Part shown: positions 3,538-58,286 of the stretch, piece after piece
How positions within the stretch are numbered: the stretch's first letter is position 1
Layout: each line of letters begins with the position of its first letter
NCBI GenBank assembly: GCA_937899265.1
Contig: CALBPV010000005.1
Coordinates: 1,041-65,040 of the forward strand
Length of the DNA: 64,000 bases
Direction of reading: 5' to 3'
DNA from: an uncultured Bacteroidales bacterium
Lineage (GTDB): Bacteria > Bacteroidota > Bacteroidia > Bacteroidales > UBA3663
Made by a program: the position numbers and the translations under genes
The notes under the pieces: model-generated
The model's input: the letters and a program-made list of their open reading frames with translations, nothing else
Told to the model about the DNA's origin: nothing
Databases searched by the model: none

Positions 3538-3670
3538 TGTCCCCGTTTTCCACCCCGTTAATATATATGTCCCCGTTTTCCACCCCAGCCCCTACTCCCC
3601 TCTCCCCTCTCCCCTCCCTTCAGGGAGGGGCTGGGGGTAGGCTGTCCGTTTTCCTCCCCGTTAATATATA
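3538..3670 (+). repeat. Three copies of a ~30-bp unit, TGTCCCCGTTTTCCACCCCGTTAATATATA, interrupted by a GC-rich element.
   Basis: Copy 1 is full length (3538-3567). Copy 2 is the first 19 nt and is identical (3568-3586). Copy 3 is full length but diverged, with a 2-nt deletion and one substitution (3643-3670). The GC-rich palindrome lies between copies 2 and 3. Confidence 0.85.
3586..3644. repeat. C-rich/G-rich imperfect palindromic element (family member 1) with G-quadruplex/i-motif potential.
   Basis: The core stem CCCCTCCC-TTCA-GGGAGGGG (3611-3630) is 8 bp and perfect, extended imperfectly. The left arm is CCCC-tact-CCCC-tct-CCCC-tct-CCCC-t-CCC. The ends CAGCCCCTAC...GTAGGCTG are roughly inverted. 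It resembles the elements at 18136-18196 and 30128-30176. Confidence 0.8.
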
Positions 3671-3708
3671 GTTCGAGAAAATTTTAACTCTCCAAAAAAT
3701 AAACATTC

Positions 3709-6090
3709 ATGTACAACAAATCACTACTGCCCAAATGCGGGAAGTTTCTGGTCGCTCTGTCCGCTGTCGTGCTCACAATGACGGCTTGTCAGGACGACTT
3801 GGGAGATGACAGCCATTACAAAGCTCCCTCCTTCCTGGCCGGAAACGCCCTGCAGGTGCTTGAGAAGTCGTATGAAGGTCATACTTTCAACACCTTCCTA
3901 CGCGGCATCGAACTCGTAGGTTACAACGATGTGGTTGACAGTCAGATTCTCACGGTGCTGGCTCCGACCGACGAGGCTTTTGCCGCTTTCCTGAGGGAAA
4001 AAGGCTATGCCGGCATCGAAGATCTCTACTATGCCAATCCAACCTATGCAACACAACTGATTACCTATCACCTCCTCTACTATGCGATGGATTGGGACAA
4101 GATGACCAATTTCCGTCCTTCCGAGGGCGATGCCGCCACCGAGAGCCAACGGGCCCGGATGGCAGGCATGTACAACAGGTACAGAACACGTTGTGCGGTG
4201 GAGGAAACCGTCGAATTCAACAGCGAAGCTTCCGTCAACGCCAACGTGCGAGTGGTTCACTACGACCGCTACCTGACAGTCTTCTCTGAGAAACTCTTTG
4301 CCACCTTGGGAATCGATGCTGCTTCCAACTACAATTATTTCTTCCCCAACACGGAGTGGAATCCCAAACATCTGGACAACGGCTTCAATGTCATGAACGC
4401 AGCCGTGCTCGACACTGCCGCTGTGGTCACCGACAACGGATATCTCTACCACATCGACCACGTCATTGAGCCCGTGGGAACCATCTACGACGAGATTTCT
4501 TCCAACCAGGACTACTCGCTCGTCAAGAACCTCTTCGACCAATACGGCTATTACCTCATAGACAATGACGAATCGGACAACCGAGGATACACCGTCTATT
4601 CCCATCGTTTCAGTTCTCTGCCCGACATCGCCTCCGAATGGGCCGTTTCGGACTATCTGGCTTTTGCAACCAACAGTTTCGCTTCCTACAACCTCTTCAT
4701 TCCCACCGACCGGGCTCTCAACAAGATGTTCTCGGAATATTGGGAAGAAGGTTGCGGCTACTCTTCGGTGGCCGACCTCAACCCCGCCATCCAGGGAATC
4801 CTCCTCCAGGAGTGCGTGGGTTACATTGACGTGGACGGCGTACGCACGACACAGTATATGTGCTATCCCGACTATATACGTGAGGGCAAGGTGCAGTCGA
4901 GCTTCGGCACGACCATCGAGAACGATCCCTCTTCGTTCGACGAGAACCTCTTCTGCAATAACGGCGTCATTTACGGTTCGTCGCAGATGGAGGTGCCCGG
5001 AGTGTTCTCGTCGGTCGCCGGCCCCGCTTTCAAGGACGTGAAATACCTGCCTTATCTCTATGCTCTCTACGGTGCCGACCTCCTCCTTTCTCTGTCTTCC
5101 AAGGAGTCGGACTATATCGCCCTCATTCCCGACACCGCCCAGTTCGCCCACAACGACCCCGCCATGCGCCTCTTCCGAAGCACTGCCTCCGGAACGACAA
5201 CCTACACCCTCCAACAGTGGAACGACGAGGTTTCCGACTACGTCAACATGGGTACTTCCACCATGCGCGACATCGCCAATATGCACACCTCCACCGATGC
5301 CACCGAGCTCAAGACCGAGGGAACGCAGGTTATCGAGACCAACGTGTCGTTCAACTACTGGTTTGTCGATAACGGCATGATTACGACCAATGCACTCTTC
5401 AACCAGCAGCTCAACCCCACTTTCAACGAGGAAATCTGGTATCCATTCACCGAAATCAAACGAACCGCTGCGGGCCAAAACTGGAGCAACGGCAAGGCTT
5501 ACGCCTACGCCTACCCCGGTGTCTATCAGTCGGCTTCGGGAAGCAGTCTGGAAGCCGAGCTCTCTCAGAACAACGACCGCAACTATCCATACTACTGTTT
5601 CGTGCAACTGCTCCAAAAAGCCGGATTGGCTGCGGGCGGAAAATTCTCGGGTATGCTCACCCTTGACCCCGAGTCTCCCCGTTTCTTCGCCATCGTGCCC
5701 ACCAACGATGCCGTCAAGGATGCCCTCAAGAGTCTGCCCGGTTGCAGTGCACTCAATATCAATGCATCGACATACGCCATCACAGGTACCGTCTCGACAG
5801 CCAACAAAACCGTGCTCGCCAACTACCTGCTCAGCTATTTCGTCACTGCCGACCGCAACGCCTTCACCTCCTATCCCTACCTCGGTTCCACCTGCAAAGG
5901 ACGATTCGAGACCTCCGGCAACTATGCGCTCAACATCGCCGACACCGGCGACGCCATCACCGTCAACTTCGCCCCTCAAGGCTCCGCAACTCCCGAGGGT
6001 AATGTCGTCACCCTCGTCGATACCTACCATTTCCTGCCCTTCGCTTTCTCCGACGGTGCTTTCCAAATGATTGATACAGTATTACAGTAG
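3709..6090 (+). CDS. Fasciclin (FAS1) repeat surface lipoprotein.
   Basis: The signal peptide with lipobox is 'VVLTMTAC'. Four FAS1-like H1/H2 motifs are present: 'ILTVLAPTDEAFAAFL', 'NLFIPTDRALNKMF', 'YIALIPDTAQFA' and 'FFAIVPTNDAVKDAL'. It sits immediately upstream of SusC. Confidence 0.8.
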   Translation: MYNKSLLPKCGKFLVALSAVVLTMTACQDDLGDDSHYKAPSFLAGNALQVLEKSYEGHTFNTFLRGIELVGYNDVVDSQILTVLAPTDEAFAAFLREKGYAGIEDLYYANPTYATQLITYHLLYYAMDWDKMTNFRPSEGDAATESQRARMAGMYNRYRTRCAVEETVEFNSEASVNANVRVVHYDRYLTVFSEKLFATLGIDAASNYNYFFPNTEWNPKHLDNGFNVMNAAVLDTAAVVTDNGYLYHIDHVIEPVGTIYDEISSNQDYSLVKNLFDQYGYYLIDNDESDNRGYTVYSHRFSSLPDIASEWAVSDYLAFATNSFASYNLFIPTDRALNKMFSEYWEEGCGYSSVADLNPAIQGILLQECVGYIDVDGVRTTQYMCYPDYIREGKVQSSFGTTIENDPSSFDENLFCNNGVIYGSSQMEVPGVFSSVAGPAFKDVKYLPYLYALYGADLLLSLSSKESDYIALIPDTAQFAHNDPAMRLFRSTASGTTTYTLQQWNDEVSDYVNMGTSTMRDIANMHTSTDATELKTEGTQVIETNVSFNYWFVDNGMITTNALFNQQLNPTFNEEIWYPFTEIKRTAAGQNWSNGKAYAYAYPGVYQSASGSSLEAELSQNNDRNYPYYCFVQLLQKAGLAAGGKFSGMLTLDPESPRFFAIVPTNDAVKDALKSLPGCSALNINASTYAITGTVSTANKTVLANYLLSYFVTADRNAFTSYPYLGSTCKGRFETSGNYALNIADTGDAITVNFAPQGSATPEGNVVTLVDTYHFLPFAFSDGAFQMIDTVLQ

Positions 6091-6099
6091 TCTCAAAAC

Positions 6100-6155
6100 G
6101 AAACTTGAAACTTGAAACTTGAAACTTGAAACTTGAAACTTGAAACTTGAAACTT
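6100..6155 (+). repeat. Tandem heptamer array, 8 perfect copies of GAAACTT.
   Basis: Direct reading gives units starting at 6100, 6107, 6114, 6121, 6128, 6135, 6142 and 6149. The array lies between the fasciclin stop (6088-6090) and the ATG at 6159. Confidence 0.97.
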
Positions 6156-6158
6156 TTT

Positions 6159-9100
6159 ATGATGAATCGATTAGCGGACAAGGCCGTAAGCCTTAGACCT
6201 TTGACTTTTGTCTTTAGACTGAGAAAATTAGCGGACAAGGCCGTAAGCCTTAGACCTTTGACTTTTGTCTTTATTTTCTTCATGCTGTTCTGTTTCGGGG
6301 CTGCCGTGGCACTGGCACAGAACAAGACCATGACAGGTACCGTCATCGAGGAGGGTGTCAACGAGCCCATCTACGGCGCCAACGTCGTCGTCATTAATCA
6401 GCAGAACCGAACCCTCGGCGGTACAATTACCGACCTCGACGGCAATTTCGTGCTCAACGTGCCCGAGGGCAAGAATCTGAGAATCCAGATTTCTTTCATC
6501 GGTCTCAAGACGCAGACTTTCAACTACACCGGGCAGAGCAAACTCAACGTCACCCTTGCCAGCGACTCCAAGTTGCTGGGCGATGTCGAGGTCGTCACCA
6601 AAGCCGTCACCCGTTCCGAACTCGGTATCACCGACATCCAACAGACCTCTTCCACCCAGCGTGTCCAGATGGCAGAGCTCACCGAGGTCGCTCCCGTGGC
6701 CTCCATCGAAGAGGCGCTCCAGGGTCAGATGGCCGGCGTGGACATCGTGTTGGGCGGTGACCCCGGCGCCAAGTCCTCCATCCGCATCCGAGGCGTCAGC
6801 ACCCTCTCCTCTTCCGCCGAACCTCTCGTCGTCGTCGATGGTATTCCCACCACCGTTTCTTTCGGCGACGACTTCTCGTTCTCCGATGCCAACGAGGATG
6901 ACTTCGGTGCCCTCCTCAACATCTCGCCCGCCGACATCGAAAGCATCGAGGTGCTCAAGGATGCCGCCGCAACCTCTATCTACGGCACCGCCGGTTCCAA
7001 CGGTGTGCTCCTCATCAACACCAAGCAGGGCAAGACCGGCAAGACTCGCTTCAACTTCCAGTCCAAGTTCTCCTACAAGGAAGAGCCCGCAACCATCCCC
7101 CTGCTCAACGGCAAACAGTACATCTCCATGATTGAGGATGCCATCTGGAATGCCGCCAATGCCAAGGGGCTCGCCTCCGCCGCCTCCGAACTCAACCTCC
7201 TCTTCAATACCAAGGAGTTGCTTCGCGACCCCTCCTACCGCTACTACAACGAATATAATGTCGATACCGACTGGCTCGACCAAGTGCGCCAGAACGCTTG
7301 GCAGTGGGACAACTCCTTCAGCATGACCGGCGGCGGCGAAAAAGCCACCTACCGCCTGTCGTTCGGATATCTCGACGATATCGGCACAACCATCGGTACC
7401 GAGGCCCGCCGTATCACTGCCGGTGCCAAGATTACCTATAAGTTCTCCGACCGTTTCCGCATCTACACCGACCTCTCCTACACCGACTACGACAAAGATG
7501 CCAACGCCGTCGAGAACGTGCGTTCCCGCGCTCAGGCCATGATGCCAAACCAGAGCCCCTACCTCATGAACGACGACGGAACCCCCAGTGCGTCCTATTT
7601 CACGCCCGAGGAAAACTTCCAGGGCTCGTTCTCCGGTGTGAGCAGCAGCAATAACGGACTGGGCAACTTCAACCCCGTGGCCATGGCTAAGGAGTCATAC
7701 AAGAACACACGCGAGCGCACCGAGAAGATTACCATCGACTGGGAGTACAAGTTCCCGCTCAAGCAAGAGTGGCAGCACCTCACCTACGAGGGATACGTCA
7801 ACATGAACATGAAGACCTCCGCCACCAAGACCTTCCTGCCCCAAGTGGCCACCGGCGTGCTGTGGACCAACACCTACGCCAACCGCTCCACCGAGGCCGC
7901 CAGCGATGCCTTCTCCCTCCAGTTCTACAACAAGATACTTTATGTGGCAACCATTGCCGAGAAACACAACATCGTCTTCACCGGCATCGCCAATACCACC
8001 ACAACCCATTCCGCCTCTGCCTCCAACAGCACCTACGCCAACGTCTCCATCAACCTCAGCGACCCCATCGTCGGATCCACCGTCGGCGGCGCCTCATCCG
8101 GCGACAGCGAGAACCGTAAGGTGCGTTTCACCGAGAGCCTCAACTACGCCTACGACAACCGATATGTCCTCTCCGCCGTCGTGACCGAGGAAGGAAACTC
8201 CGCAATGGGCAAGAACCAGCGATTCGGCGTCTTCCCCGCTTTCGGCGCCTCGTGGAACCTCGAGAAGGAGCATTTCATGGAAAATCATGAGTGGCTCACC
8301 CAGGGCAAGCTCCGCGCCTCGCTCGGTTGGTCCGGCAACGCGCCCTCATCAGGCTACAGCTACCTCGGCGCTTACTCCTCGTTGGGCACCTACGGCTCGA
8401 TGAGCGCCATCTCGCCCAGCCGGATGCAGCTCGACAAACTCAAATGGGAAAGCAGTCGCGAATGGGATCTCGGTCTCGACCTCCGCATCCTCGACCGCTA
8501 CGGCCTCACCATCGACTACTACGACAAATACACCGAAGACTGTCTGATGTCAAGTGTCGCCATCCCCTCCACCTCCGGCTACACCTCCCTCAAGTACATG
8601 AACTCGGGAGAAATGTCCAACAAGGGTTACGAAATACGTCTCGACGTGGATATCTTCAAGAGCAAGATGTGGTCCGCAAAAATCAGCGTCAACGCTGCCC
8701 GCAACATCAACAAGGTGGAACAGATTCCCACCAACTGGACGGCCGAGAACTACTCGTTCGGCAACGGCAACTACGCCGTGCGCATCGTGGAAGGCGACCC
8801 CATCGGCTCCTTCTACGGGTACAGGTATCTCGGTGTATATCGTGACAGCGAGGACACCTACGCACGGGATGCCAGCGGCAACGTGATGCGTGACTTCAAC
8901 GGCGATGTTGTCACCATGAAGAACGGTACCACTCAGGTCTATGCCGGTGATGCCAAGTACGAGGACATCAACCACGACGGTGTAATCAACGAACAGGACA
9001 TTGTCTATCTCGGCAACTCCAACCCGACCCTCACCGGCGGCGGTAACTTCAACCTCAAATACGGCAACACGAAGACCTCGTTCGGACAGTTCTCGCTCAC

Positions 9101-14918: not shown

Positions 14919-17900
14919 ATGAATGTCTTAAAATCTATCCTTTGCAGCGCTGCACTCTGCTCGAGCTTGGCTTTGGCCCAGACATCGGAAACATATACGG
15001 TGAGCGGCGTGATTCTCAACGATCAGTTGCAACCGGTGGCTGACGCTATCGTCTCATGCCCCGGTCACGGACTGGTGCGCACCGAGGCTGACGGCAAGTT
15101 CGAGCTGAAGGATGTCGGAAAATGGAGCGCTGTGCGTGTCCAGGCTCAGGGATTCTACAACAAAGAGTTCCATGTGGTGGAGAACGCCGACAACCTCAAC
15201 GTTTATCTCATCGGAAAGGATAAGCGTCAGTACAACCAGACTGTCCTTAACGGCATGGCCGAAAACAGCGAAGGCGTTGAAAGCTCATTCGGCACCCAGA
15301 ATATCGCCAAAAAGGACCTCAGCCTCGGTGCAGTAGGTCTGGACAAAGCCCTTCAAGGACAGTTCACAGGTCTGCAGATAACACAGAAGTCAGGCATGAC
15401 GGGTGAAGGTTCAAATCTCCAGTGGCGAGGCATCCGCAGTTTCGTCGCCGAGACCAATCCCCTCATCGTCATCAACGGCGTGCCCTATATGCCCGACCTC
15501 CAGGAGTCATCGCTCATTCAGGGCTACTCGCGCAGCATCTTCCAGTCCATCAATCCTCAGGATATCGCCAACGTGACACTCCTCTCCGGTGCTGAAGCTT
15601 CGGCATGGGGTTCTCTCGGTTCCAACGGCGTGCTCCTCATTGAGACGGACGGTGCCAAGAGCGATGACCTCAACACTCGCGTCAGCTTCACGGGCAGTTT
15701 CGGCCTCAATTGGCAGACCAACAAACTGCCCCTCATGAACGCGTCGGCCTACAAGTCCTACCTCTCCGACATCGCGATGGACTACTACAAGAACGACATG
15801 GGCGCCTTCTTCTCCGACTTCGGATTTATGTCGTCGGCTTCGGCCAACATGGCCCACCTCTATGCGTTCAACACCGACTGGCAGGATGAAATCTTTGACA
15901 ATTCCATGACCCACGACTATCTCTTCCGTGTGGAAGGTGGAGACGCTATTGCCAAGTACGACATCGCCCTCGGCTACACAGGCGACCAGGGAACGCTCAC
16001 CGACACCAAGTCAGACCGCTTCCACGCCCAGATCAACGCCAACGTCCTGATAAGCAAGAAATGGGAGATGAACGCCAACATCAATCTGGCCTACCTCACC
16101 GGCAGCTATCAGGAACAGGGCTACAGCCTCGAGACCAATCCTCTCCTTGCTGCCTACCGGCGTTCGCCGCTCCTCTCGCCCTATCAGTCGAGCACCATTC
16201 CTTCCGAGGACGGCACCTATGCCCTCATCAACAAGTACTCGAGCTACTACCTCGGTTCGGTACAGAACACTGACTTCATCGTTTCCAACCCCGTCTCTCT
16301 CGTCAATACGGTCGATGGTTCCGTGCGCCAATATGATATGAACTCACGCATACAGGCTGTCTATAAGCCCACCAACGACTGGACGCTGGCTGCTACCATA
16401 GGTCTCTACACCAACTTCGACAAGGAGAAACTCTTCGTGCCGGGCAAGGACAACAGCGACATCGTGCCGCGTTTCGACAACTACGGCAAGTCCGAAAACA
16501 CCGTCAAGGTCGGCGAGGCTACTGTCTTCAACCTCTACTACGGCGCAAATGCCCGCTACCAGCACACATGGAACCGCCGTCACAGCCTCGATGCGCGCGC
16601 CGGATTCCAGGTACTCCGCACCAAGACGGAATACGATATGGCTACGGGACGCAACACGGCCAACGACTACTATCAGACCATGGGCGACACTCAGTCTGTC
16701 GGCAAATACATCGACGGATACAACAACAAGTGGAACTGGCTCAACGGATATGTGCAGGCCCAATACACCTTCGGCAACCTTGTGCGTGCCGGTTTGGTGG
16801 CTTCTGTGGACGGTGCCAGCTCCGTGGGTTCCGATGCCACACGTGTTGCAGTCTATCCCGGTGCCAACGTCGGACTCATGCTCGCCAACTGGAAAGGCAT
16901 CCGTACCGCCGACTGGCTCGACCGCCTCGATGTCTTTGCCGACTACGACGTAACGGGCAACAGCCGCTACTCGTCCAAGTTCGGAAAGTATTACTACACG
17001 TCTCAGCCCTATCAGACCATCGCCGGTATCGTACGTGCCAACGTACCCAACACCGAACTGAAGACCGAGACGGACTATTCCTTCCAGGCCGGCATTGATA
17101 TGGCCTGGCTCCAGAACCGTTTCGGAATCCGCGCAGCATGGTTCAACACCCGCGCCAAGGATGTTCTCATGCTGGGACGAAACTCCTCGGCACTCGGTAC
17201 CTCGCCCTACTACTGCAACGACGGCGAGATTGTGAGCAAAGGACTCGAACTGCGTTTCAGCGTCGTACCTGTCCGTACTCGCGACTGGACATGGACGCTC
17301 AACGTCCAGACCACACACGTGAAGAACTCTGTCGAGAACCTCGGCTCTCTGTCTCAGTTCATCACCTCGCTCAGCGACGGCGGTGAGATTATTTCCAAAG
17401 TCGGCGAGAATCCATACGCTTTCTATGGCTACCGCACACGGGGTGTCTATAGCACCTCCGCGGATGCCGCTGCCACCGGTCTTGTCAACCGCAACGGTGT
17501 GGCCTACAAGGCAGGCGATGTGATTTATGTCGATCAGAACAACGACGGCATCATCAACGATGCCGACAAAGTGGTGCTCGGAAGCTCCACGCCCGATGTC
17601 TTCGGCTCCGTCTTCACGAGCCTGCAATACAAGGGTTGGACGCTCGACCTCAACTTCGTCTTCAGCGACGGTAACGAGGCCTACAATGCCACCCGCCGCA
17701 TCACCGAGTCATCGTCCGATTTTGCCAACCAGTCCAAGTCGGTTATGCGCCGCTGGCAGAACGAAGGCGATGTCACCGACATGCCGCGTGCCAACTACCG
17801 AGACATCATCGGCAACAACGAAATGAGTGACCGCTTTGTCGAGGACGCTTCCTACATCAAGCTTCGCGATGTAACCCTCTCTTACTCCTGGAACAAGAAA

Positions 17901-18083
17901 CTCTGGAATTTCATCCGCGGCGGCAGCATCTATCTCTCCGGCCAGAATCTCTTGTGTATCACCAAGTATCTCGGAACCGACCCCGAATTCGCCTACAGCA
18001 ACGCCTCCTCTATGATGGGCGTCGATTATGGCAAGGTCGCTCTCCCCAAGAGTGTGAAAATCGGTGTGAATTTGCAATTCTGA
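14919..18083 (+). CDS. SusC/RagA-family TonB-dependent outer-membrane transporter (pair 2).
   Basis: The signal peptide ends 'SLALAQ'. It has a carboxypeptidase-regulatory-like domain ('[20 protein letters not shown]') and a plug motif ('[27 protein letters not shown]'). The C-terminus is 'VNLQF' and SusD follows. Confidence 0.9.
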   Translation: [1054 protein letters not shown]

Positions 18084-18086
18084 TGC

Positions 18087-18135
18087 GAAACTTGAAACCT
18101 GAAACTTGAAACCTGAAACCTGAAACTTGAAACCC
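18087..18135 (+). repeat. Tandem heptamer array, 7 units of GAAACTT/GAAACCT.
   Basis: Units start at 18087, 18094, 18101, 18108, 18115, 18122 and 18129, with the pattern T,C,T,C,C,T,(CC). The array begins 4 nt after the SusC stop (18081-18083). Confidence 0.95.
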
Positions 18136-18196
18136 TTCCCCCTTCCCCCTCCCCCTTCCCTTCAGGGGAGGGCTGGGGAGAGGCCGGGGGTAGGCT
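18136..18196. repeat. C-rich/G-rich imperfect palindromic element (family member 2) with a canonical G4 motif.
   Basis: The stem is CCCTTCCC-TTCA-GGGGAGGG (18153-18172). The right arm, GGGG-a-GGG-ct-GGGG-agaggcc-GGGGG, meets the (G3+N1-7)4 rule, and the left arm is C-tract rich. It ends in GGTAGGCT like member 1. Confidence 0.8.
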
Positions 18197-18210
18197 GAAA
18201 CTTGAAACTC
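18197..18210 (+). repeat. Two further heptamer units (GAAACTT GAAACTC) on the far side of the GC element.
   Basis: Read directly. They end 3 nt before the ATG at 18214. Confidence 0.85.
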
Positions 18211-18213
18211 ATT

Positions 18214-19995
18214 ATGAATATGAAAAATATTTTCTATAGTGTGAAGACGTGGTGCATGCTTTTCCTCATGGGAGGCGTGGCCTGCGGTTTGACTTCCTGC
18301 AACGACTTCTTCGAACCCCAAACGGACGATGCCCTCTCGGGCGATGACTACATGTCGTCCATCACCGAGATGGCTACAGGTTATCTCGGCATTCTCACCA
18401 AGATGCAGGCTGTCGGCGACAAGGAGATTTATCTCACCGACACTCGCGGCGAAATGCTGGAGCCCACCGACCAGTCCATCGCCGAACTCATTGCCCTCTA
18501 TAATTACGAAGACGATCTCACCGGCAATTCATACGCCGACCCCTCGGGCTACTACGATGTGGTTATCGCCTGCAACGACTACCTCCAGAACATGCTCGAC
18601 TTCAAGAAGAACTATCCCGAGATAGTGGCCGAGACAGACTACTTCGAAGGTCTCTTCGCCTCTGCCATCCGTGTCAAGGTCTGGGCCTACATGACTCTCG
18701 CCGAGATTTACGGACAGGCCCTCTGGTTCGACGACCCCATCACCTCTATCAAGGATGTCCGCGATGCAACCATCTTCACTCGTCTCACCACTGCGCAGAT
18801 TGTCTCTCGGTGCCTCTCCTTGCTCACCGGCGGATGGCAGGGCTACTCGGCGGCTGAGGACTTCTCATGGATTGCCTGGATCGACCCGTCCAACGTCAAT
18901 TCCATCGCCTCGTCTTCCTACCGCTATTGGGATCAGATGACTCCGCCCTACGATGCCCTGCTCGTCAAACTAACCCTTTGGGATGCCGCTTTCCAAGATG
19001 CTGCAGGCAACACCTCCGGAGCTCAGACCGACTACGAAACCGTGGCCGACCAGATTCTCAAGATGCTCAACGACAAGTTCATCTCCAACATCACTTACTG
19101 GAAGCGCGGCGCTCGTACCTCGGGCGTATATAGCAATATGTGGAACTACGCCTCCCCCAACCAGGAGGAGTCCGTCAGCGCCATTATCTACGACTACACC
19201 AAGAACCAGACAAACCGGCTGCTCTATCATTTCTCCAACGAATACCCCAACGCCTATCTGCTCACTTCCAGCGAGGTGGGACGAGCACGTTTCTCCGATA
19301 CCACCATTGACCCTCTCGGAACCTCCACCGAGGACAGCCGTCTGGGACGCACCACACGGGAGAACAGCTCGGTGTGGTATATCTCGAAATTCCGTCCCGT
19401 GGGCTCCACCGTGCGCGTTGAGGCCTACCAGGATGACGTGCATGTCTATACCTTCCGCGCAGCCGAACTTTATCTCTGGCTCGCCGAGGCTCTCAACCAC
19501 CTCGGCAGATACGACGCCCTCAACCACATCATCAACGAGGGTTTCAACTCCACCTGGTCCGACCTCTTCACCCAAATCGAAGAGGGCGACGAGACAGTGT
19601 CCGAGGCCAATCTGTTCCAGTGGAAGGGCTTTACAAGCTATTGGATTAACTCCAAGACCGGCGGCACCTACAACGGGTTCCGCAACTGCATGGGTGTGGG
19701 CAACGTTGCCATTTGGGACGAAACAACCCATACTGCTGCCGAGGCGCAGCGCCACAACGACGAACTGCTGGCCAACGAATGGATGTTCGAGTGCGCCTGC
19801 GAGGGAAAGGTATATCCCAACCTCATTCGTTTCGCCGAGCGCTACAACGACGCCTCCATCGTCTCCGACCGTGTGACGCCCAAGTACGCCACCTCCAAAA
19901 CCGGTGCAACCGAAGCCTCCGTTGCCACCAAAATTCAGAGCGTCAACACCAATTCCGGTGTAATGGGCTATTACGTGCCCTGGAACTTGTATTAA
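18214..19995 (+). CDS. SusD/RagB-family nutrient-binding lipoprotein (pair 2).
   Basis: The lipobox is 'CGLTSC'. It follows SusC and has a SusD-like helical core ('AAELYLWLAEALNHLGRY'). The track start 18202 is a TTG inside the heptamer repeat, so the ATGs at 18214 or 18220 are more likely. Confidence 0.8.
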   Translation: MNMKNIFYSVKTWCMLFLMGGVACGLTSCNDFFEPQTDDALSGDDYMSSITEMATGYLGILTKMQAVGDKEIYLTDTRGEMLEPTDQSIAELIALYNYEDDLTGNSYADPSGYYDVVIACNDYLQNMLDFKKNYPEIVAETDYFEGLFASAIRVKVWAYMTLAEIYGQALWFDDPITSIKDVRDATIFTRLTTAQIVSRCLSLLTGGWQGYSAAEDFSWIAWIDPSNVNSIASSSYRYWDQMTPPYDALLVKLTLWDAAFQDAAGNTSGAQTDYETVADQILKMLNDKFISNITYWKRGARTSGVYSNMWNYASPNQEESVSAIIYDYTKNQTNRLLYHFSNEYPNAYLLTSSEVGRARFSDTTIDPLGTSTEDSRLGRTTRENSSVWYISKFRPVGSTVRVEAYQDDVHVYTFRAAELYLWLAEALNHLGRYDALNHIINEGFNSTWSDLFTQIEEGDETVSEANLFQWKGFTSYWINSKTGGTYNGFRNCMGVGNVAIWDETTHTAAEAQRHNDELLANEWMFECACEGKVYPNLIRFAERYNDASIVSDRVTPKYATSKTGATEASVATKIQSVNTNSGVMGYYVPWNLY

Positions 19996-39162: not shown

Positions 39163-39297
39163 AGAATACTGCCGCCCAGCCTCCCCGCAAAAGAAAGAAG
39201 AAGACCATCTCCCGATGCCCTTCTTCACTAATCTTAAATCTAATACCATGAAAAACACGGGACAAATATAATCTTTTTTTCACAAAAACAACAACAG

Positions 39298-52500: not shown

Positions 52501-53441
52501 AGAACCTCCGGGCAATGGCTGCCGGACAGGATTCGCTTTACATACGGACTTACGAAGACTACCTTGCCGGACATTCTCGGCAGGTGCACGAGGCATATTT
52601 CTGGGTACACGACAACTGGCCGCTCTCGAAGCTAATGCCCAAATTCATCTTCCTCCACGCTCTCTCCTATATACAGGAAGGTGACGTAAAGAGTTTCCAG
52701 GAAGCCCTCGAACAACTCACGGCCACTTATCCCGAGAGTGATGTTTCTCCGTTGGCCGGCATGATGGTCAAAGGCATCCACGAAGGACGCAACGTACAGA
52801 CCGGTTCCACCAACAGAGGCATGATGTGGGGCAGTTCACTCCATCGCGAGGGGGACAGCATTGCCGTAGATTCCTCCATGATGTTTGTCAACGACCTCAA
52901 GGCTCCCTTTGTCCTGCTTTTGGCCTATCCTACCGACTCGCTCAATCAGAACGACCTGCTCTTCGAAATTGCCAAATTCAACTTCGAGAGCTTCCTCGTG
53001 AAAGACTTCGACCTCGAAATCATAAATACGGGCGGCGGTCTCAGCGTGTTGGTCATCAGCCAGTTCGCCGACATCAACGAGCTCCTCGACTACCACAACA
53101 AGATGGATGTTTCCGAGACGCTCTGGTTGCCCGACAACATTACAATGATTGATATCTCGGTGCCCAACTTCCGTGCCCTCCTCGCCGGACGCACCTTCGA
53201 AGAATACTTCCAATGGGTAGAGAAGACATACGGTGGCGGAGAAGAAGGAGATTCCGAGAAATCAGACAACTCTGACAATTCCGAGAAATCAGACAATTCC
53301 GACAATTCCGACAATTCCGAGAAATCAGACAACTCCGACAACTCTGACAACTCCGACAATTCCGACAATTCCGACAACTCCGACAACTCCGAGAAATCAG
53401 ACAATTCTGACAACTCCGACAACTCCGACAACTCCTTTTAA
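49566..53441 (+). CDS. Single 1291-codon ORF. It joins an ABC-3 (ZnuB/MntB-type) metal-transporter permease (~aa 1-256) in frame to a PorW/SprE-like TPR lipoprotein (aa 257 to the end).
   Basis: The permease part carries 'VFIAGGITHASLGGLGLG' and multiple TM segments. No stop intervenes before 'MRGVLHLVRRRSSAAVIVIMVLSALTLSGC' (ATG 50334), a complete lipoprotein signal peptide. Then follow 'FTTKFNPYFNGEEAYKKG', many TPR-like helices and an SDN/SEK repeat tail. The PorW assignment comes from remembered family features and adjacency to porX. Confidence 0.7.
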   Translation: MLLEYLFFRHALLGALLVSLCCGIIGTYVVTRRRVFIAGGITHASLGGLGLGIFAGLNPTWVAVVFAIVAAWAVQWLSSRRNIREDSAIAVCWSFGMALGIIFIFLTPGYAPSLTEYLFGNILTITAGDLWTMGIFTAVLLAFQIICQRAILYVAFDASFARIQRFRSGLVDYTMTALTAVAIVLSIRMIGIVLLLSVLTLPQMMASLFCNEYRRLVILSSLLCFAGCVGGLLVSVALNVPAGACIVALMVVVYFVMRGVLHLVRRRSSAAVIVIMVLSALTLSGCKSNTALNRGMRAFTTKFNPYFNGEEAYKKGLITMESRQDDEYSERIFLHPVHKYVGQEPGSDANFQRAVEKCKICVQTKSMNTPPKSRPDNPSKEYREWLKHSEFNPFLHNAWFLSGKAQFMMGNFDAAEATFRYTARKFYWKELLLQECHIWLARCAVMKKDYYQAEAELEQVIPAKNYSSQNSLGQNAVYKNLPARVQNEFSLVKAEMLLLQPGNEAAVLDYLTKGRKAFLSKDQRVRTRFFMAQLHEELSHSAASSAEREVHRKQAYKLYRNITHSASNYKTQFNARIAATRVMPTDNLDKVEKKLRHLSWQARNKEYLDQICYALGNVELARKDTAKAVEWYERAVEKSTRNGLDKAVAALRLGELTFEQADYVRAQKGYSAAMGIIKDTYPGYDSIRHISQVLDALQTHAESVHLQDSLLTLAALPEDSLNEAIDRIIKELTRQEKEAEDAQKMQAYNDKQSSRVDPLAQVAPNIPQVGTQDKSWYFYNPSVITRGKQEFQRRWGARKPEDDWRRKDKTASLLAAAEEMQDTIVETADNISPEIPADTPSDISSGDIAPAETAEAAPVDSVFLEKAQDPHNREYYLAQLPFTPEQKDACHAIIEEGLYNEGVIINEQLENFPLAIKTFTEVENRYPESARRLDMWYAIYLMYMRMNQPEKAEIYRQKLMEGFPEAAYTKAVADPNYIQNLRAMAAGQDSLYIRTYEDYLAGHSRQVHEAYFWVHDNWPLSKLMPKFIFLHALSYIQEGDVKSFQEALEQLTATYPESDVSPLAGMMVKGIHEGRNVQTGSTNRGMMWGSSLHREGDSIAVDSSMMFVNDLKAPFVLLLAYPTDSLNQNDLLFEIAKFNFESFLVKDFDLEIINTGGGLSVLVISQFADINELLDYHNKMDVSETLWLPDNITMIDISVPNFRALLAGRTFEEYFQWVEKTYGGGEEGDSEKSDNSDNSEKSDNSDNSDNSEKSDNSDNSDNSDNSDNSDNSDNSEKSDNSDNSDNSDNSF
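53250..53435 (+). repeat. Coding 9-nt tandem repeat, ~20 units (TCC GAC AAY = SDN, with interspersed TCC GAG AAA = SEK).
   Basis: It reads directly as D-(SEK)(SDN)2(SEK)(SDN)3(SEK)(SDN)7(SEK)(SDN)4-SF-stop at the C-terminus of the PorW-like ORF. Confidence 0.95.
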
Positions 53442-55039: not shown

Positions 55040-55876
55040 ATGGACATCTTTCCTCACCGCAGATTTGCTGCAAAATTCGCCTCCCCCGTGGAGGACAAAG
55101 AACACATCCTCCAAATAGCCATCGACATGGCTATGGAGGCCGGTCGCATCCAACTTCGCAAATTCCGCTCCCGTCACCTCGAAATGGAGACCAAAAGTTC
55201 CATCCACGATGTTGTGACCGAAGTCGATAAAGAATGTGAAGCCTTTCTCATCGCCCAGATTCACGAAGCCTATCCTACCCACTCGGTATTGGGCGAAGAA
55301 ACGGGACTCCATCAGAAGGAGAGCGATTGGGAATGGGTGATTGACCCCCTCGACGGTACGAACAACTACAGCCAGGGGCTTCCCGTCTTCAGCGTCAGCA
55401 TCGGCGTGAAGTACAAAGGCGAGACTCTGGTGGGCGTAGTCTATGCACCCTATCTCGACGAGCTCTTCACAGCCTCCAAGGACGGCGGTGCCGCCATGAA
55501 CGGCCGCGCCATCCACGTGAGCCGCAAGACAAACTTCGGGGCTTGTGTGCTGGGCACCGGCTTCCCCTACGACAAAGGCTCAGTGACGAGTTACGACAAC
55601 AACCTCGACAACGTGTGTGCCCTTCTGCCCAAGCTCCGCGGCCTTCGCCGCATGGGTTCTGCGGCATACGACCTTTGCTGTGTGGCCGCAGGCATCCTCG
55701 ATGGCTATTGGGAGTTGGGACTTAAGCCCTGGGATTTATGCGCCGGAGCCCTCATCGTCGAGGAAGCCGGTGGCAAGATTGTTCCTTTCCGTCAAGACCG
55801 CCCCATCGCCATCGTCGCAGGCAACCAAGCCCTTGTCAACCGGATTCTCTCCTTGCTCGGCAAAGACAAAGCCTGA
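55040..55876 (+). CDS. Inositol monophosphatase (SuhB/IMPase) family protein.
   Basis: Motifs are 'VLGEETG', 'WVIDPLDGTNNY' and 'GSAAYDLC'. Confidence 0.85.
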   Translation: MDIFPHRRFAAKFASPVEDKEHILQIAIDMAMEAGRIQLRKFRSRHLEMETKSSIHDVVTEVDKECEAFLIAQIHEAYPTHSVLGEETGLHQKESDWEWVIDPLDGTNNYSQGLPVFSVSIGVKYKGETLVGVVYAPYLDELFTASKDGGAAMNGRAIHVSRKTNFGACVLGTGFPYDKGSVTSYDNNLDNVCALLPKLRGLRRMGSAAYDLCCVAAGILDGYWELGLKPWDLCAGALIVEEAGGKIVPFRQDRPIAIVAGNQALVNRILSLLGKDKA

Positions 55877-55923
55877 AACTTGAAACTTGAAACTTGAAAC
55901 TTGAAACTTGAAACTTGAAACTT
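55875..55923 (+). repeat. Tandem heptamer array, 7 perfect copies of GAAACTT.
   Basis: Units start at 55875, 55882, 55889, 55896, 55903, 55910 and 55917. The IMPase stop TGA (55874-55876) overlaps the first unit. The array ends 11 nt before the trpS ATG. Confidence 0.97.
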
Positions 55924-55934
55924 AATTGACTCCT

Positions 55935-56936
55935 ATGGATAACGAAAAGAAAATCGTCCTCTCGGGCATCCGCTCCACGGGACACCTCCATCTGGGCAAC
56001 TACTACGGTGCCCTCCGCAATTTCGTCGAGATGCAGAACGACTATAAGTGTTTCTTCTTCATCGCCGACTACCACTCGCTCACCACACAGCCCGATCCCT
56101 CGCTCCTCAATCCTTCGGTACGTTCGATTCTGGCTGAATATCTCGCTGCCGGCCTCGATCCCGAGAAGGCCAACATCTACATCCAGAGCGATGTGCCCGA
56201 GACCTGTGAGTTCTACACTTTGCTGAATATGCACGCCTATGTGGGCGAACTTGAGAAAACCGTTTCTTTCAAGGACAAAGTGCGCAAGAACCCCAACAAT
56301 GTCAACGCCGGCCTGCTCACCTATCCCGTCCTCATGGCTGCCGACATTCTCCAGCATCGCGCCGACTACGTTCCTGTGGGCAAGGACCAGATGCAGCACC
56401 TCGAGATGGCACGCAACTACGCCGTCCGCTTCAACCATTTCTACCACACCGACCTCCTCAAGGAGCCTCAGCCTTTCGCAACTTCGAGAGAACCCATCAA
56501 GGTGCCCGGTCTCGACGGCAGCGGCAAGATGGGCAAGAGTGAAGGCAACTGCATCTACATCAACGACGACGACAAGACCGTCATCAAGAAAGTCAAGAAG
56601 GCTGTCACCGACATGACACCCACCGAGCAGAACTCTCCCATGTCCGACCCCATCAAGAATCTCTTCTACTTCCTTCAGCTCGTTTCCACTCAGGAAATCT
56701 ACAATCAGTATCTTGCTGCCTGGAACGATTGTTCCATCCGCTACGGCGATCTCAAGATGCAGATTGCAACCGACATCCTCAAAGTGACAACGCCTATTCG
56801 CGAACGGTATAACGAGATTTACACCGACAGCGACTACCTCAACCGCGTAGCAGCCAAGGGAGCCGAAGCAGCCCGAGAGAGCTGTCGCAAGACACTCGCT
56901 GCCATGCGCGAAATCATGGGCTTCAAACACTTCTGA
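55935..56936 (+). CDS. trpS: Tryptophan--tRNA ligase.
   Basis: It has 'SGIRSTGHLHLGNYYGA' (a HIGH-type motif) and 'GKMGKSEGN' (a KMSKS-type motif). The ATG at 55935 is preferred over the TTG at 55926. Confidence 0.95.
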   Translation: MDNEKKIVLSGIRSTGHLHLGNYYGALRNFVEMQNDYKCFFFIADYHSLTTQPDPSLLNPSVRSILAEYLAAGLDPEKANIYIQSDVPETCEFYTLLNMHAYVGELEKTVSFKDKVRKNPNNVNAGLLTYPVLMAADILQHRADYVPVGKDQMQHLEMARNYAVRFNHFYHTDLLKEPQPFATSREPIKVPGLDGSGKMGKSEGNCIYINDDDKTVIKKVKKAVTDMTPTEQNSPMSDPIKNLFYFLQLVSTQEIYNQYLAAWNDCSIRYGDLKMQIATDILKVTTPIRERYNEIYTDSDYLNRVAAKGAEAARESCRKTLAAMREIMGFKHF

Positions 56937-56990
56937 AACTTGAAACCTGAAACCTGAAACTTGAAACCTGAAACTTGAAACTTTGAACTT
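56935..56990 (+). repeat. Tandem heptamer array, 7 units of GAAACTT/GAAACCT plus one degenerate unit (TGAACTT).
   Basis: Units start at 56935, 56942, 56949, 56956, 56963, 56970 and 56977, with the degenerate unit at 56984-56990. The trpS stop TGA (56934-56936) overlaps the first unit. The array abuts the ATG at 56991. Confidence 0.95.
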
Positions 56991-58286
56991 ATGGTAAGCA
57001 AGGAACAACTCAACGCCGCCCTCGCCCGCCAAGGGCTGCAAAGCGTGGCTCAGGCCAACATCCGCGACATACAGACACTCTCCAAAGCGCTCGAACAGGA
57101 GAGCGGTGAGCCTTTCATCCATCTCGAAATGGGTGTGCCCGGTCTCAAACCTTCCGACATTGCCTTCGAGGCCGAAGTCGAAGCCCTCAAGGGCGGTTGT
57201 GCTGCCGTCTATCCTCCCAATGCCGGCATTGCCCGTCTCCACGAGGCTGCATCGCGGTTTGTGAAAGCCTTTATCGATGTCGATGTCGCGCCCGCCCACA
57301 TCTGCGCTACGACAGGCTCGATGCAAGGCACATTCTCAGTCATGATGACGATGCATCATGCCAATCCCGCGAAGGACACTGTCCTCTTCATCGATCCGGG
57401 CTTCAATGTCCAGAAGACGCAGGCTCAGATTATCGGTCTCAAGGGCGAACACTTCGATGTCCATCACTGTCGCGGACAGCAGCTTCTCGACCGTATGGAA
57501 GATATCCTCCGAACGGGAAAGGTTTGTCTCATCGTTTATTCCAATCCCAACAATCCCTCTTGGATTTGTCTTTCGGACGAAGAACTGCAGGGCATCGGTG
57601 CCTTGGCTACCCGATACGACGTTGTGGTACTTGAGGACCTCGCCTATTTCGCAATGGACTTCCGCAAGGACCTCTCGCGACCCTACGAAGCACCCTTCCA
57701 GCCTTCCGTGGCCAAATATACCGACAATTACGTGATGGCCATTTCCGGCTCCAAGGCTTTCAGCTATGCCGGACAACGCATCGGCACCCTCGCCATCAGC
57801 GACCGGCTCTATGTGCGAGAGTATGCTCCCCTTGGAGCTTTCGGGGTGAAGAGCTGGGGCGACTTCCTCTCAGGCCGCGTGCTCTACACCATGTCGTCCG
57901 GCACGGCTCATGCACCCCAGCATGCCCTTGCCGCCATGATGGAGGCCGCCGTCGAAGGACGCTTCGATTTTGTGGCCGAGATTCGCGAATACGGCCGTCG
58001 TGCCAAGTTCATGAAAGATGTGCTGCTCCGCCACGGCTTCTATCTGGTCTATGACAACGACTTGGGAGCCCCTCTTGCCGACGGCTTCTATTTCACGACG
58101 CAGTATCCGGGCATGACCGACATTGAGCTCACTGCCGAACTCATGCGCTATGGTATCGCTGTCTTCCCACTTGAGAGCATGGGCTCCGACGAACAGGGCG
58201 TGCGCATCTGCACCTCGTTCATCACCGATGCCCAGTTCCCCCTCTTCGAGCAGCGCATCTCAGCCTTCGCCGCCGACCACCGTTAA
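56991..58286 (+). CDS. Class I/II pyridoxal-phosphate-dependent aminotransferase.
   Basis: It is 431 aa, with 'SNPNNPSW' and the PLP-lysine segment 'SGSKAFSYAGQRIG'. Substrate specificity cannot be determined from sequence alone. Confidence 0.8.
   Translation: MVSKEQLNAALARQGLQSVAQANIRDIQTLSKALEQESGEPFIHLEMGVPGLKPSDIAFEAEVEALKGGCAAVYPPNAGIARLHEAASRFVKAFIDVDVAPAHICATTGSMQGTFSVMMTMHHANPAKDTVLFIDPGFNVQKTQAQIIGLKGEHFDVHHCRGQQLLDRMEDILRTGKVCLIVYSNPNNPSWICLSDEELQGIGALATRYDVVVLEDLAYFAMDFRKDLSRPYEAPFQPSVAKYTDNYVMAISGSKAFSYAGQRIGTLAISDRLYVREYAPLGAFGVKSWGDFLSGRVLYTMSSGTAHAPQHALAAMMEAAVEGRFDFVAEIREYGRRAKFMKDVLLRHGFYLVYDNDLGAPLADGFYFTTQYPGMTDIELTAELMRYGIAVFPLESMGSDEQGVRICTSFITDAQFPLFEQRISAFAADHR

Follow-up and report, generated by a model that had tools for sequence, protein, structure and literature searches.

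The 64-kb window, a term used here for the whole stretch of Bacteroidales DNA that was analysed, carries tandem arrays of the heptanucleotide GAAACYT at four loci of one genome (Table 1). All four arrays are intergenic and lie between co-directional called genes with Pfam support. Junction A leads from a fasciclin gene to a SusC-like gene (Plug, CarboxypepD_reg) and junction B from a SusC-like gene to a SusD gene; along J1 and J2 the order is inositol monophosphatase, TrpS, aminotransferase. Direct reading and TRF bear out the four plus-strand arrays that the original prediction had placed at these positions, and the gene labels it had assigned (fasciclin, SusC and others) hold by Pfam. The arrays also fill the gene-to-gene gaps in sense orientation just upstream of the start codons, as it had proposed, with 0-11 nt left before the downstream ATG.

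Table 1. Heptanucleotide arrays of the 64-kb window and the hairpin element embedded in one of them
Feature	Position	Strand	Flanking genes	Basis
Junction A array, (GAAACTT)8, perfect	6100-6155	+	fasciclin-domain gene to SusC-like gene	TRF, Pfam
Junction B array, 5' part, six GAAACYT units and GAAACCC	18087-18135	+		TRF, direct reading
GC-rich hairpin element inside array B, not a repeat	18136-18195 (ends approximate)	+		fold
Junction B array, 3' part, TGAAACTTGAAACT	18196-18209	+		direct reading
Junction J1 array, (GAAACTT)7, perfect	55875-55923	+	inositol monophosphatase gene to trpS	TRF, Pfam
Junction J2 array, seven GAAACYT units and degenerate TGAACTT	56935-56990	+	trpS to aminotransferase gene	TRF, Pfam

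The boundaries of the arrays are set closely by the codons on either side. At junction A, the TAG stop (6088-6090) is followed by 9 nt, the array, TTT and the ATG at 6159. At junction B, the TGA stop of the SusC-like gene (18081-18083) is separated by 3 nt from the array, which runs from 18087; beyond the hairpin of ~60 nt the two units of TGAAACTTGAAACT are followed by CATT and the SusD-like ATG at 18214. At J1 and J2, the upstream stop overlaps the first unit of the array. The inositol monophosphatase gene ends in TGA at 55874-55876, and the trpS ATG at 55935 comes 11 nt after the array; trpS itself ends in TGA at 56934-56936, and the aminotransferase ATG at 56991 lies directly 3' of the last unit. 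The gaps from array end to ATG amount to 3, 4, 11 and 0 nt at junctions A, B, J1 and J2, respectively.

In the window, TRF reports 7-8 copies with a match of 87-100% across units: 8.0 copies at 6100-6155 and 7.1 at 55874-55923, both with 100% match, 6.9 at 18087-18134 and 7.1 at 56934-56983. A three-unit GAAACYT pattern with up to 2 mismatches (<=2) is matched 23 times in the window, against an expectation of 0.00 from 100 shuffles, and the only exact two-unit seed found outside the arrays in a scan of the window lies at 18197, where array B resumes. Direct reading of the four arrays shows that they have neither conserved flanks nor target-site duplications nor terminal repeats. The codons ahead of the J1 array, AAAGCCT, are already similar to the unit. 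The other short junctions of the window, those lacking an array, share no GAAACTT-like consensus, and a common junction consensus that would have seeded one unit throughout was rejected on this ground.

The heptamer places TGA in all three forward frames of the arrays and leaves the reverse strand without stops. Both properties had been predicted and are confirmed, and the open reverse strand gives rise to a spurious 496-codon antisense ORF (55836-57326) which passes through the J1 and J2 arrays. The unit had also been described as not self-complementary, and the GAAACYT arrays indeed fold less well than shuffled sequences (z = +1.1 to +1.9). The region 18080-18225, which contains the GC hairpin, folds at -39 kcal/mol. 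Rfam 15 returns no match on the arrays at the gathering threshold in a scan of the window, nor any at E <= 1 in the regions 55700-57200 and 5900-6400, and a known RNA family was rejected accordingly. A promoter or terminator role was rejected as well: promoter-like matches at the arrays are at background level in a sigma-70-type scan, which does not model Bacteroidota promoters, and no plus-strand terminator occurs at the array junctions. By eye, no TA of the kind that a TAnnTTTG motif requires is present in the arrays. FopS, a Bacteroidetes sRNA family, accounts for the single Rfam hit of the window, on the minus strand at 39191-39258, with 56.2 bits against a gathering threshold of 56. Pairing of FopS with the arrays was considered and dropped, as FopS has neither AAGUUUC nor complementarity to the heptamer.

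Several established repeat and regulatory classes differ from the arrays in their basic design. The 7-nt units are contiguous and without spacers, as opposed to the ~23-50 nt repeats and unique spacers of CRISPR arrays. They have no inverted repeat or hairpin and no conserved ends of the kind that define REP and MITE elements, the GC element in array B being the only hairpin. Their location from stop to start is neither within an ORF nor within a promoter spacer, the locations relevant to phase variation. With respect to TRAP/HutP-type sites, neither a hairpin nor a terminator accompanies the arrays, and orthologous junctions do not retain the unit.

Comparison with closely related strains reveals that the arrays change in length by whole units. 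The J1 array has 6 units in L121 and 7 in both L122 and the window, with identical TrpS. L133, whose proteins are 98-99.8% identical to those of the window, has at junction A 6 units, an insertion of ~75 nt and 3 more units, against 8 in the window, and at junction B 3+2 units around a shorter GC element, against 7+2. Near-identical strains are thus polymorphic in copy number in steps of 7 nt. The uniform 7-8 copies, which had been taken as a departure from neutral drift, prove to be an accident of one assembly. Exact-protein look-ups with genes at the edges of the window, meant to extend it, found no match. The relatives of the Bacteroidales of the window come from metagenome assemblies, and the same arrays are present in independent assemblies from ENA, NCBI and the metagenome set (L121, L122 and L133), with identical flanks and length differences of 7 nt. 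Tandem repeats can in principle be mis-assembled, but an assembly artefact is refuted by these sensible differences within identical surroundings, and its probability is practically nil.

Other repeats of the window vary among the same relatives. The GC-rich hairpin element of array B (CCCTTCCCCC...GGGGTAGGC) has a second copy at ~3583-3645, between the first gene and the fasciclin gene; a shorter version occupies the same site in L133 (18560-18600), and none is present in L135 of the sister lineage. In appearance it resembles a small hairpin repeat that is mobile or able to expand. The motif TCCCCGTTTTCCACCCCGTTAATATAT recurs around the GC element in the window (3543-3680), and the ~75-nt insertion splitting the junction A array of L133 (6545-6620) carries CCCCGTATTCCCCGTTATTATAAT, which is related to it. 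With the GC hairpin in array B and the 75-nt insertion in array A of L133, the heptamer arrays seem to attract small insertions. Within coding sequence, the 5' end of the SusC-like gene contains a perfect 47-nt direct repeat with 57-nt spacing (6170-6216 and 6227-6273), by which 19 codons are duplicated in frame; the sequence is single-copy in L133. A coding nonamer, (TCCGACAAC)20, at 53253-53435 lies at the C-terminus of a 1291-residue protein and is present in 15.6 copies in L121, 5.3 in L123 and 3.3 in L124.

At greater distance, the arrays are replaced altogether. In a sister lineage, TrpS is 96% identical and the other proteins are 79-93% identical to those of the window. Its J2 junction (L123-L132) has no array and consists only of TAAGCGATG, a 3-nt spacer. 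Its J1 junction carries an unrelated decamer, (NNCCTAGGAT)5-10, followed by an A-rich tract, and its junction A, represented by L135, contains degenerate octamers. Junction B of L135 alone has the unit of the window, in a proto-array of 3-4 GAAACYT units (caacttggaacttgaaacttgaaac) devoid of the GC element. Among other relatives, L134 has (GGTYKTRA)7 starting from the stop codon at junction A and a similar octamer at another junction, and L136 has no repeat at junction A. Further lineages have a unique 69-nt spacer, and in others inverted octamer arrays, with 6 or 8 copies, end 2 nt before the next ATG; 7-, 8-, 9- and 12-nt arrays are found at other junctions in relatives. In all, GAAACYT is replaced at the same junctions of close relatives by CCTAGGATNN, TCAAATAG, GGTTGTAA and TCAGATTAC, and the ends of the flanking proteins are preserved exactly in all of them.

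Of the four arrays of the window, three were gained after the split from the sister lineage, and all three have the unit of the older proto-array at junction B. The arrays turn over between lineages, and it is the presence of some short tandem repeat that recurs at these junctions, and not GAAACYT itself. The original prediction had treated the heptamer as an RNA-level element at the ribosome-loading position; the arrays are not conserved, as the 3-nt spacer at J2, the decamer at J1 and the octamers at A in the sister lineage show. Nor is the lack of structure retained: the decamer array at the sister J1 is strongly structured (z = -5.2), and decamer and octamer arrays of relatives at the same or analogous junctions have z values of -5.2 and -5.4. 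An unstructured leader is thus not a general requirement, and the unrelated or structured repeats of the sister lineage imply that neither the sequence of the unit nor the absence of structure is required at the junctions.

The repeats of the sister lineage (L123, 2870-3040 and 3877-3995; also L124 and L129) are variable in their own right. An array of (TCAGATTAC)5-16 separates a PglZ response-regulator gene from the inositol phosphatase gene, and (NNCCTAGGAT)5-10 together with (AAAAAAATC)3 is located upstream of trpS. The copy number of both TCAGATTAC and NNCCTAGGAT differs between contigs.

We surveyed Bacteroidota SusD loci chosen without regard to repeats. The sample comprises 80 metagenome loci found by SusD homology, which together with the relatives fetched earlier make 91 loci and 1.27 Mb; after removal of duplicate and relative loci, 78 distinct loci are left. 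Arrays were defined as intergenic repeats with a 5-12 nt unit and at least 3.5 copies. Heptamers prevail among them: across the 91 loci, period 7 is counted 28 times, period 8 ten times, period 9 three times and period 12 twice, and periods 5, 6, 10 and 11 are not represented. With duplicates and relatives removed, 24 of 29 arrays, mostly heptamers, are located in short co-directional junctions. These junctions make up 10% of native intergenic bases, and the excess of arrays in them has p = 1e-19 per base and only p = 0.07 when counted per intergenic region. Relative to the stop codon, the typical array starts at -7 to +6 nt, and relative to the start codon it ends at -2 to +9 nt, as in the junction ...AACTAATTGAG(AATTGAN)6AATT ATG; the few arrays of long intergenic regions still abut a stop or start codon. 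Arrays of this kind are general in Bacteroidota PUL junctions.

The units of the surveyed arrays are biased between strands and related in sequence. On the sense strand they are purine-rich, with A exceeding T in 20 units against 1 and G exceeding C in 20 against 2. A stop codon is carried by all 26 sense units, against 23.9 expected from composition. The closure of all frames, which the original prediction had offered as a possible function, is therefore present in the arrays and almost fully predicted by their composition, and we rejected it as a sign of selection. In several loci (L134, L165, L175, L199 and L212) one unit is found at two or three junctions. A TTGA core is common to many units, such as AATTGAA, ATTGAAA and CATTGAA, and the unit of the window, rotated to CTTGAAA, is one mismatch from ATTGAAA. 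These observations suggest that in Bacteroidota PULs such arrays sit exactly from stop to start, have a purine-rich sense strand and often use a unit that recurs within the genome.

Locus L212 has, in addition, arrays of (CACTATT)4-5 at 8725-8754 and 16049-16080, ~46 nt inside two ORFs which both begin with ATGATTACCAAA. Misplaced start codons, or the location of the array in a short leader, would account for this.

The heptamer itself is widespread outside the window. In species-representative genomes from many phyla, at least 120 stretches contain (GAAACYT)4; the matches listed include Flavobacterium, with cultured species, Bacteroidales MAGs, Pyrinomonadaceae, Desulfonema, Pirellulaceae, Kiritimatiellae, Oscillochloris, Leptolyngbya and others. 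As a heptamer, GAAACYT is nonetheless not exceptional. In viral contigs used as a control, four copies of GAAACYT are found in 22 stretches, against 20, 3, 18 and 41 for four permuted heptamers of matched composition, and the view of GAAACYT as a special motif of universal occurrence was rejected. In the loci retrieved with the pattern, among the matches listed, TRF reports 311 rows with period 7, 8 with period 6 and 22 with period 8, and 135 of the 311 period-7 rows have other heptamers.

Orientation outside the window was counted with one array per locus among the matches listed, using longest-ORF-first gene calls which are crude and introduce some error in the distances to start codons. Between two genes of the same direction, 40 arrays are in sense and 20 in antisense orientation (p = 0.013, among the matches listed); 18 further arrays lie between convergent and 7 between divergent genes. 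Antisense arrays adjoin the preceding stop, at a median of 10% of the free spacer, and sense arrays are found at a median of 59% (p = 8e-5, among the matches listed). Array placement thus depends on the strand, and both orientations exist outside the window. The original prediction had noted the forward orientation at all four junctions of the window; among the matches listed, the excess of sense arrays and the distance of antisense arrays from start codons agree with such a preference, and the exclusive use of one orientation does not extend beyond the window.

In Pyrinomonadaceae and other loci (L008, L021, L030, L035, L074, L082 and L115), inverted pairs of the type (AAGTTTC)n ... (GAAACTT)n are found, which would form long hairpins; other heptamers of L074 are paired likewise. 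A phage-like viral contig of 55% GC (L237, IMGVR_UViG_3300044490_000384) contains three long sense GAAACYT arrays between co-directional genes. Two of them are followed by AGAAAGG, a Shine-Dalgarno-like motif ~5-7 nt before the ATG, so the host of this contig is probably not a member of Bacteroidota.

The best explanation of the arrays, which we hold with confidence and doubt in about equal measure, is a hypermutable heptamer simple sequence repeat, born by slippage and anchored at gene boundaries, which serves at most as a spacer without sequence specificity. We infer that slipped-strand mispairing would expand a heptamer inside a very short operon spacer, the expansion being nucleated at the gene boundary, and that the polycistronic mRNA would include the array. 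Within this transcript it would close all three frames immediately after the upstream gene and could place 50-60 nt of unstructured, A-rich RNA ahead of the next start codon, a leader of the kind used by the Shine-Dalgarno-independent ribosomes of Bacteroidota. Gains and losses of 7 nt would change the length of the spacer and may tune downstream expression. Such arrays would be tolerated and might bring a slight benefit. Since the units differ between close lineages and are in some cases structured, a conserved element with sequence-specific function is unlikely.

A purely neutral account, by which the arrays are junk microsatellites kept where they are harmless and have no effect on the expression of neighbouring genes, appears somewhat unlikely. 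It shares with the slippage-born spacer the rapid turnover of the arrays, seen in the empty J2 of the sister lineage next to unchanged flanking proteins, and the polymorphism of copy number between strains; it is also consistent with GAAACYT being no commoner than its permuted controls and with a stop property predicted by composition. What it accommodates poorly is the anchoring of arrays to gene boundaries, given the much greater amount of intergenic DNA outside junctions (p = 1e-19 per base), the strand asymmetry of the units, with a purine-rich sense strand (A over T, 20 against 1), and the avoidance of start-proximal positions by antisense GAAACYT arrays (p = 8e-5, among the matches listed). 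The biases in anchoring and strand might nevertheless be inherited from the local seed sequence of each array. Local seeds have a limit of their own: independent slippage from them fails to explain one unit at four junctions, because the junctions lacking an array have no GAAACTT-like consensus. The dispersal of the unit by a copying mechanism would fill this gap, explaining origin and not function. Templated insertion, microhomology-mediated template switching, ectopic gene conversion or a mobile or reverse-transcriptase-type activity could each be responsible, and such dispersal would suit the gain of three of the four arrays after the sister split with the unit of the junction B proto-array, the exact start of J1 and J2 at a TGA stop, which is a possible microhomology, and the other insertions the arrays attract (the GC hairpin in B, 75 nt in A of L133). 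For TAACTGA heptamer arrays, too, it was noted of their spread that 'no mechanism is evident' (PMC4679880). Conserved flanks, target-site duplications and terminal repeats are absent from the arrays and a linked enzyme gene was not found; moreover, the unit-like AAAGCCT ahead of J1 makes a local seed possible, and we regard the copying mechanism as improbable.

The recurrence of one unit at four junctions, with similar same-unit families in L134, L165, L175, L199 and L212, could alternatively point to a multimeric or cooperative RNA- or ssDNA-binding protein with a footprint of ~7 nt, such as a cold-shock, S1 or RRM protein, which would recognise the array as a periodic platform and control downstream translation. 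The related core of many units (AATTGAA, ATTGAAA and CATTGAA, with CTTGAAA one position off ATTGAAA) and the proposal of S1, Csp or CsrA binding for TAACTGA arrays (PMC4679880) lend this some plausibility. The binder, however, would have to change with each of the units CCTAGGATNN, TCAAATAG, GGTTGTAA and TCAGATTAC at the same junctions of close relatives, some of whose arrays are strongly structured; GAAACYT is not over-represented against permuted heptamers, and the window has no candidate protein gene linked to the arrays. A sequence-specific platform accordingly has little probability. Still less can be expected of a phase-variation switch, in which changes of copy number would turn the downstream SusC/SusD genes or trpS on and off. 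The copy number does differ between strains and two of the arrays precede surface-exposed SusC/SusD-type proteins, yet the arrays lie neither in ORFs nor between promoter hexamers, promoter-like hits being at background, two of them flank the housekeeping genes trpS and aminotransferase, and a change of 7 nt in an untranslated spacer has no consequence for the reading frame; such a switch is highly improbable. A last reading extends the slippage-born spacer towards selection. The anchored arrays could be a selected and repeatedly re-invented module of the operons of Shine-Dalgarno-less Bacteroidota, a purine-rich, C-poor spacer with closed frames whose length tunes initiation, its unit being spread by an undescribed templated insertion or conversion or held by a protein with a 7-nt footprint. 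We consider this unlikely, and put it forward as speculation.

With the slippage-born spacer as the preferred explanation, the arrays are best annotated as variable simple repeats and not as conserved regulatory RNA, and long antisense ORFs through them are to be regarded as spurious. The window offers a clean case: comparison with the close strains and the sister lineage makes the gain, loss and resizing of arrays directly visible at four operon junctions. If the GAAACYT arrays of cultured Flavobacterium behave alike, the idea of a translational spacer is within reach of simple reporters.

The record of intergenic heptamer repeats in bacteria goes back to the STRRs of cyanobacteria, and the closest precedent for the arrays of the window is the TAACTGA heptamer of Beggiatoaceae, Cyanobacteria and five Bacteroidetes (MacGregor 2015, PMC4679880). 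The arrays had been put forward as an element not previously described; MacGregor reported heptamer arrays of the same position and orientation and arrived at the same hypothesis of a translational role, through S1, Csp or CsrA binding. TAACTGA arrays are mostly forward; in their largest class the array stops 1 nt short of a start codon, and some run into the 3' end of the preceding ORF. They have stops in the forward frames, an open reverse strand and no predicted RNA structure; close strains differ by 7-nt indels, and the arrays are missing from close relatives that share the gene order (PMC4679880). The arrays of the window are likewise forward, end 0-11 nt before the ATG and overlap the upstream stop at J1 and J2, where the stop falls in unit 1 and the overlap stays within the limit of about two units seen for TAACTGA. 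They likewise have all forward frames stopped, an open reverse strand and no structure, differ by 7-nt indels between strains and are absent in close relatives. The likeness is one of architecture only: the unit is GAAACYT (rotated, AACTTGA as opposed to AACTGAT), the arrays have 7-9 copies where TAACTGA mostly has 2-6, and they fill whole stop-to-start gaps inside operons of an uncultured rumen-type member of Bacteroidales. A literature search for the GAAACTT array string found only an unrelated primer.

Among simple repeats with long units (5-11 nt), heptamers are the commonest in bacteria, and polymerase slippage on a footprint of ~7 nt has been proposed as the cause of their excess (Mrazek 2007, as summarised in PMC4679880 and PMC4692102). 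The arrays described here resemble these LSSRs in the excess of heptamers over other unit lengths, in their intergenic location and in their variability between relatives; as far as those summaries go, anchoring to stop and start codons and same-unit families at Bacteroidota junctions were not reported for the LSSRs. The STRR, GGGAATC and GGGGAYT heptamer families occupy many intergenic sites in cyanobacteria, Xanthomonas and Nostoc (Rehm 2015, PMC4692102). The GAAACYT arrays share with them one heptamer at many sites, variation in length and sequence among close relatives and, in some cases, inverted pairs, and differ from these G-rich, quadruplex-capable units in being A-rich and unstructured. 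TRAP and HutP sites resemble the arrays in logic alone, as periodic platforms of single-stranded RNA. The period of HutP sites is 7 nt, made up of UAG and 4 spacer nucleotides; in the arrays there is no register of GAG or UAG triplets, no attenuator hairpin and no gene for a cognate protein, and the unit is not conserved between lineages. In being tandem, intergenic, polymorphic in whole units and present at multiple loci, the arrays of the window belong to the heptanucleotide repeats of the LSSR/STRR type. The class itself has already been described; what is new here is the unit and its host.
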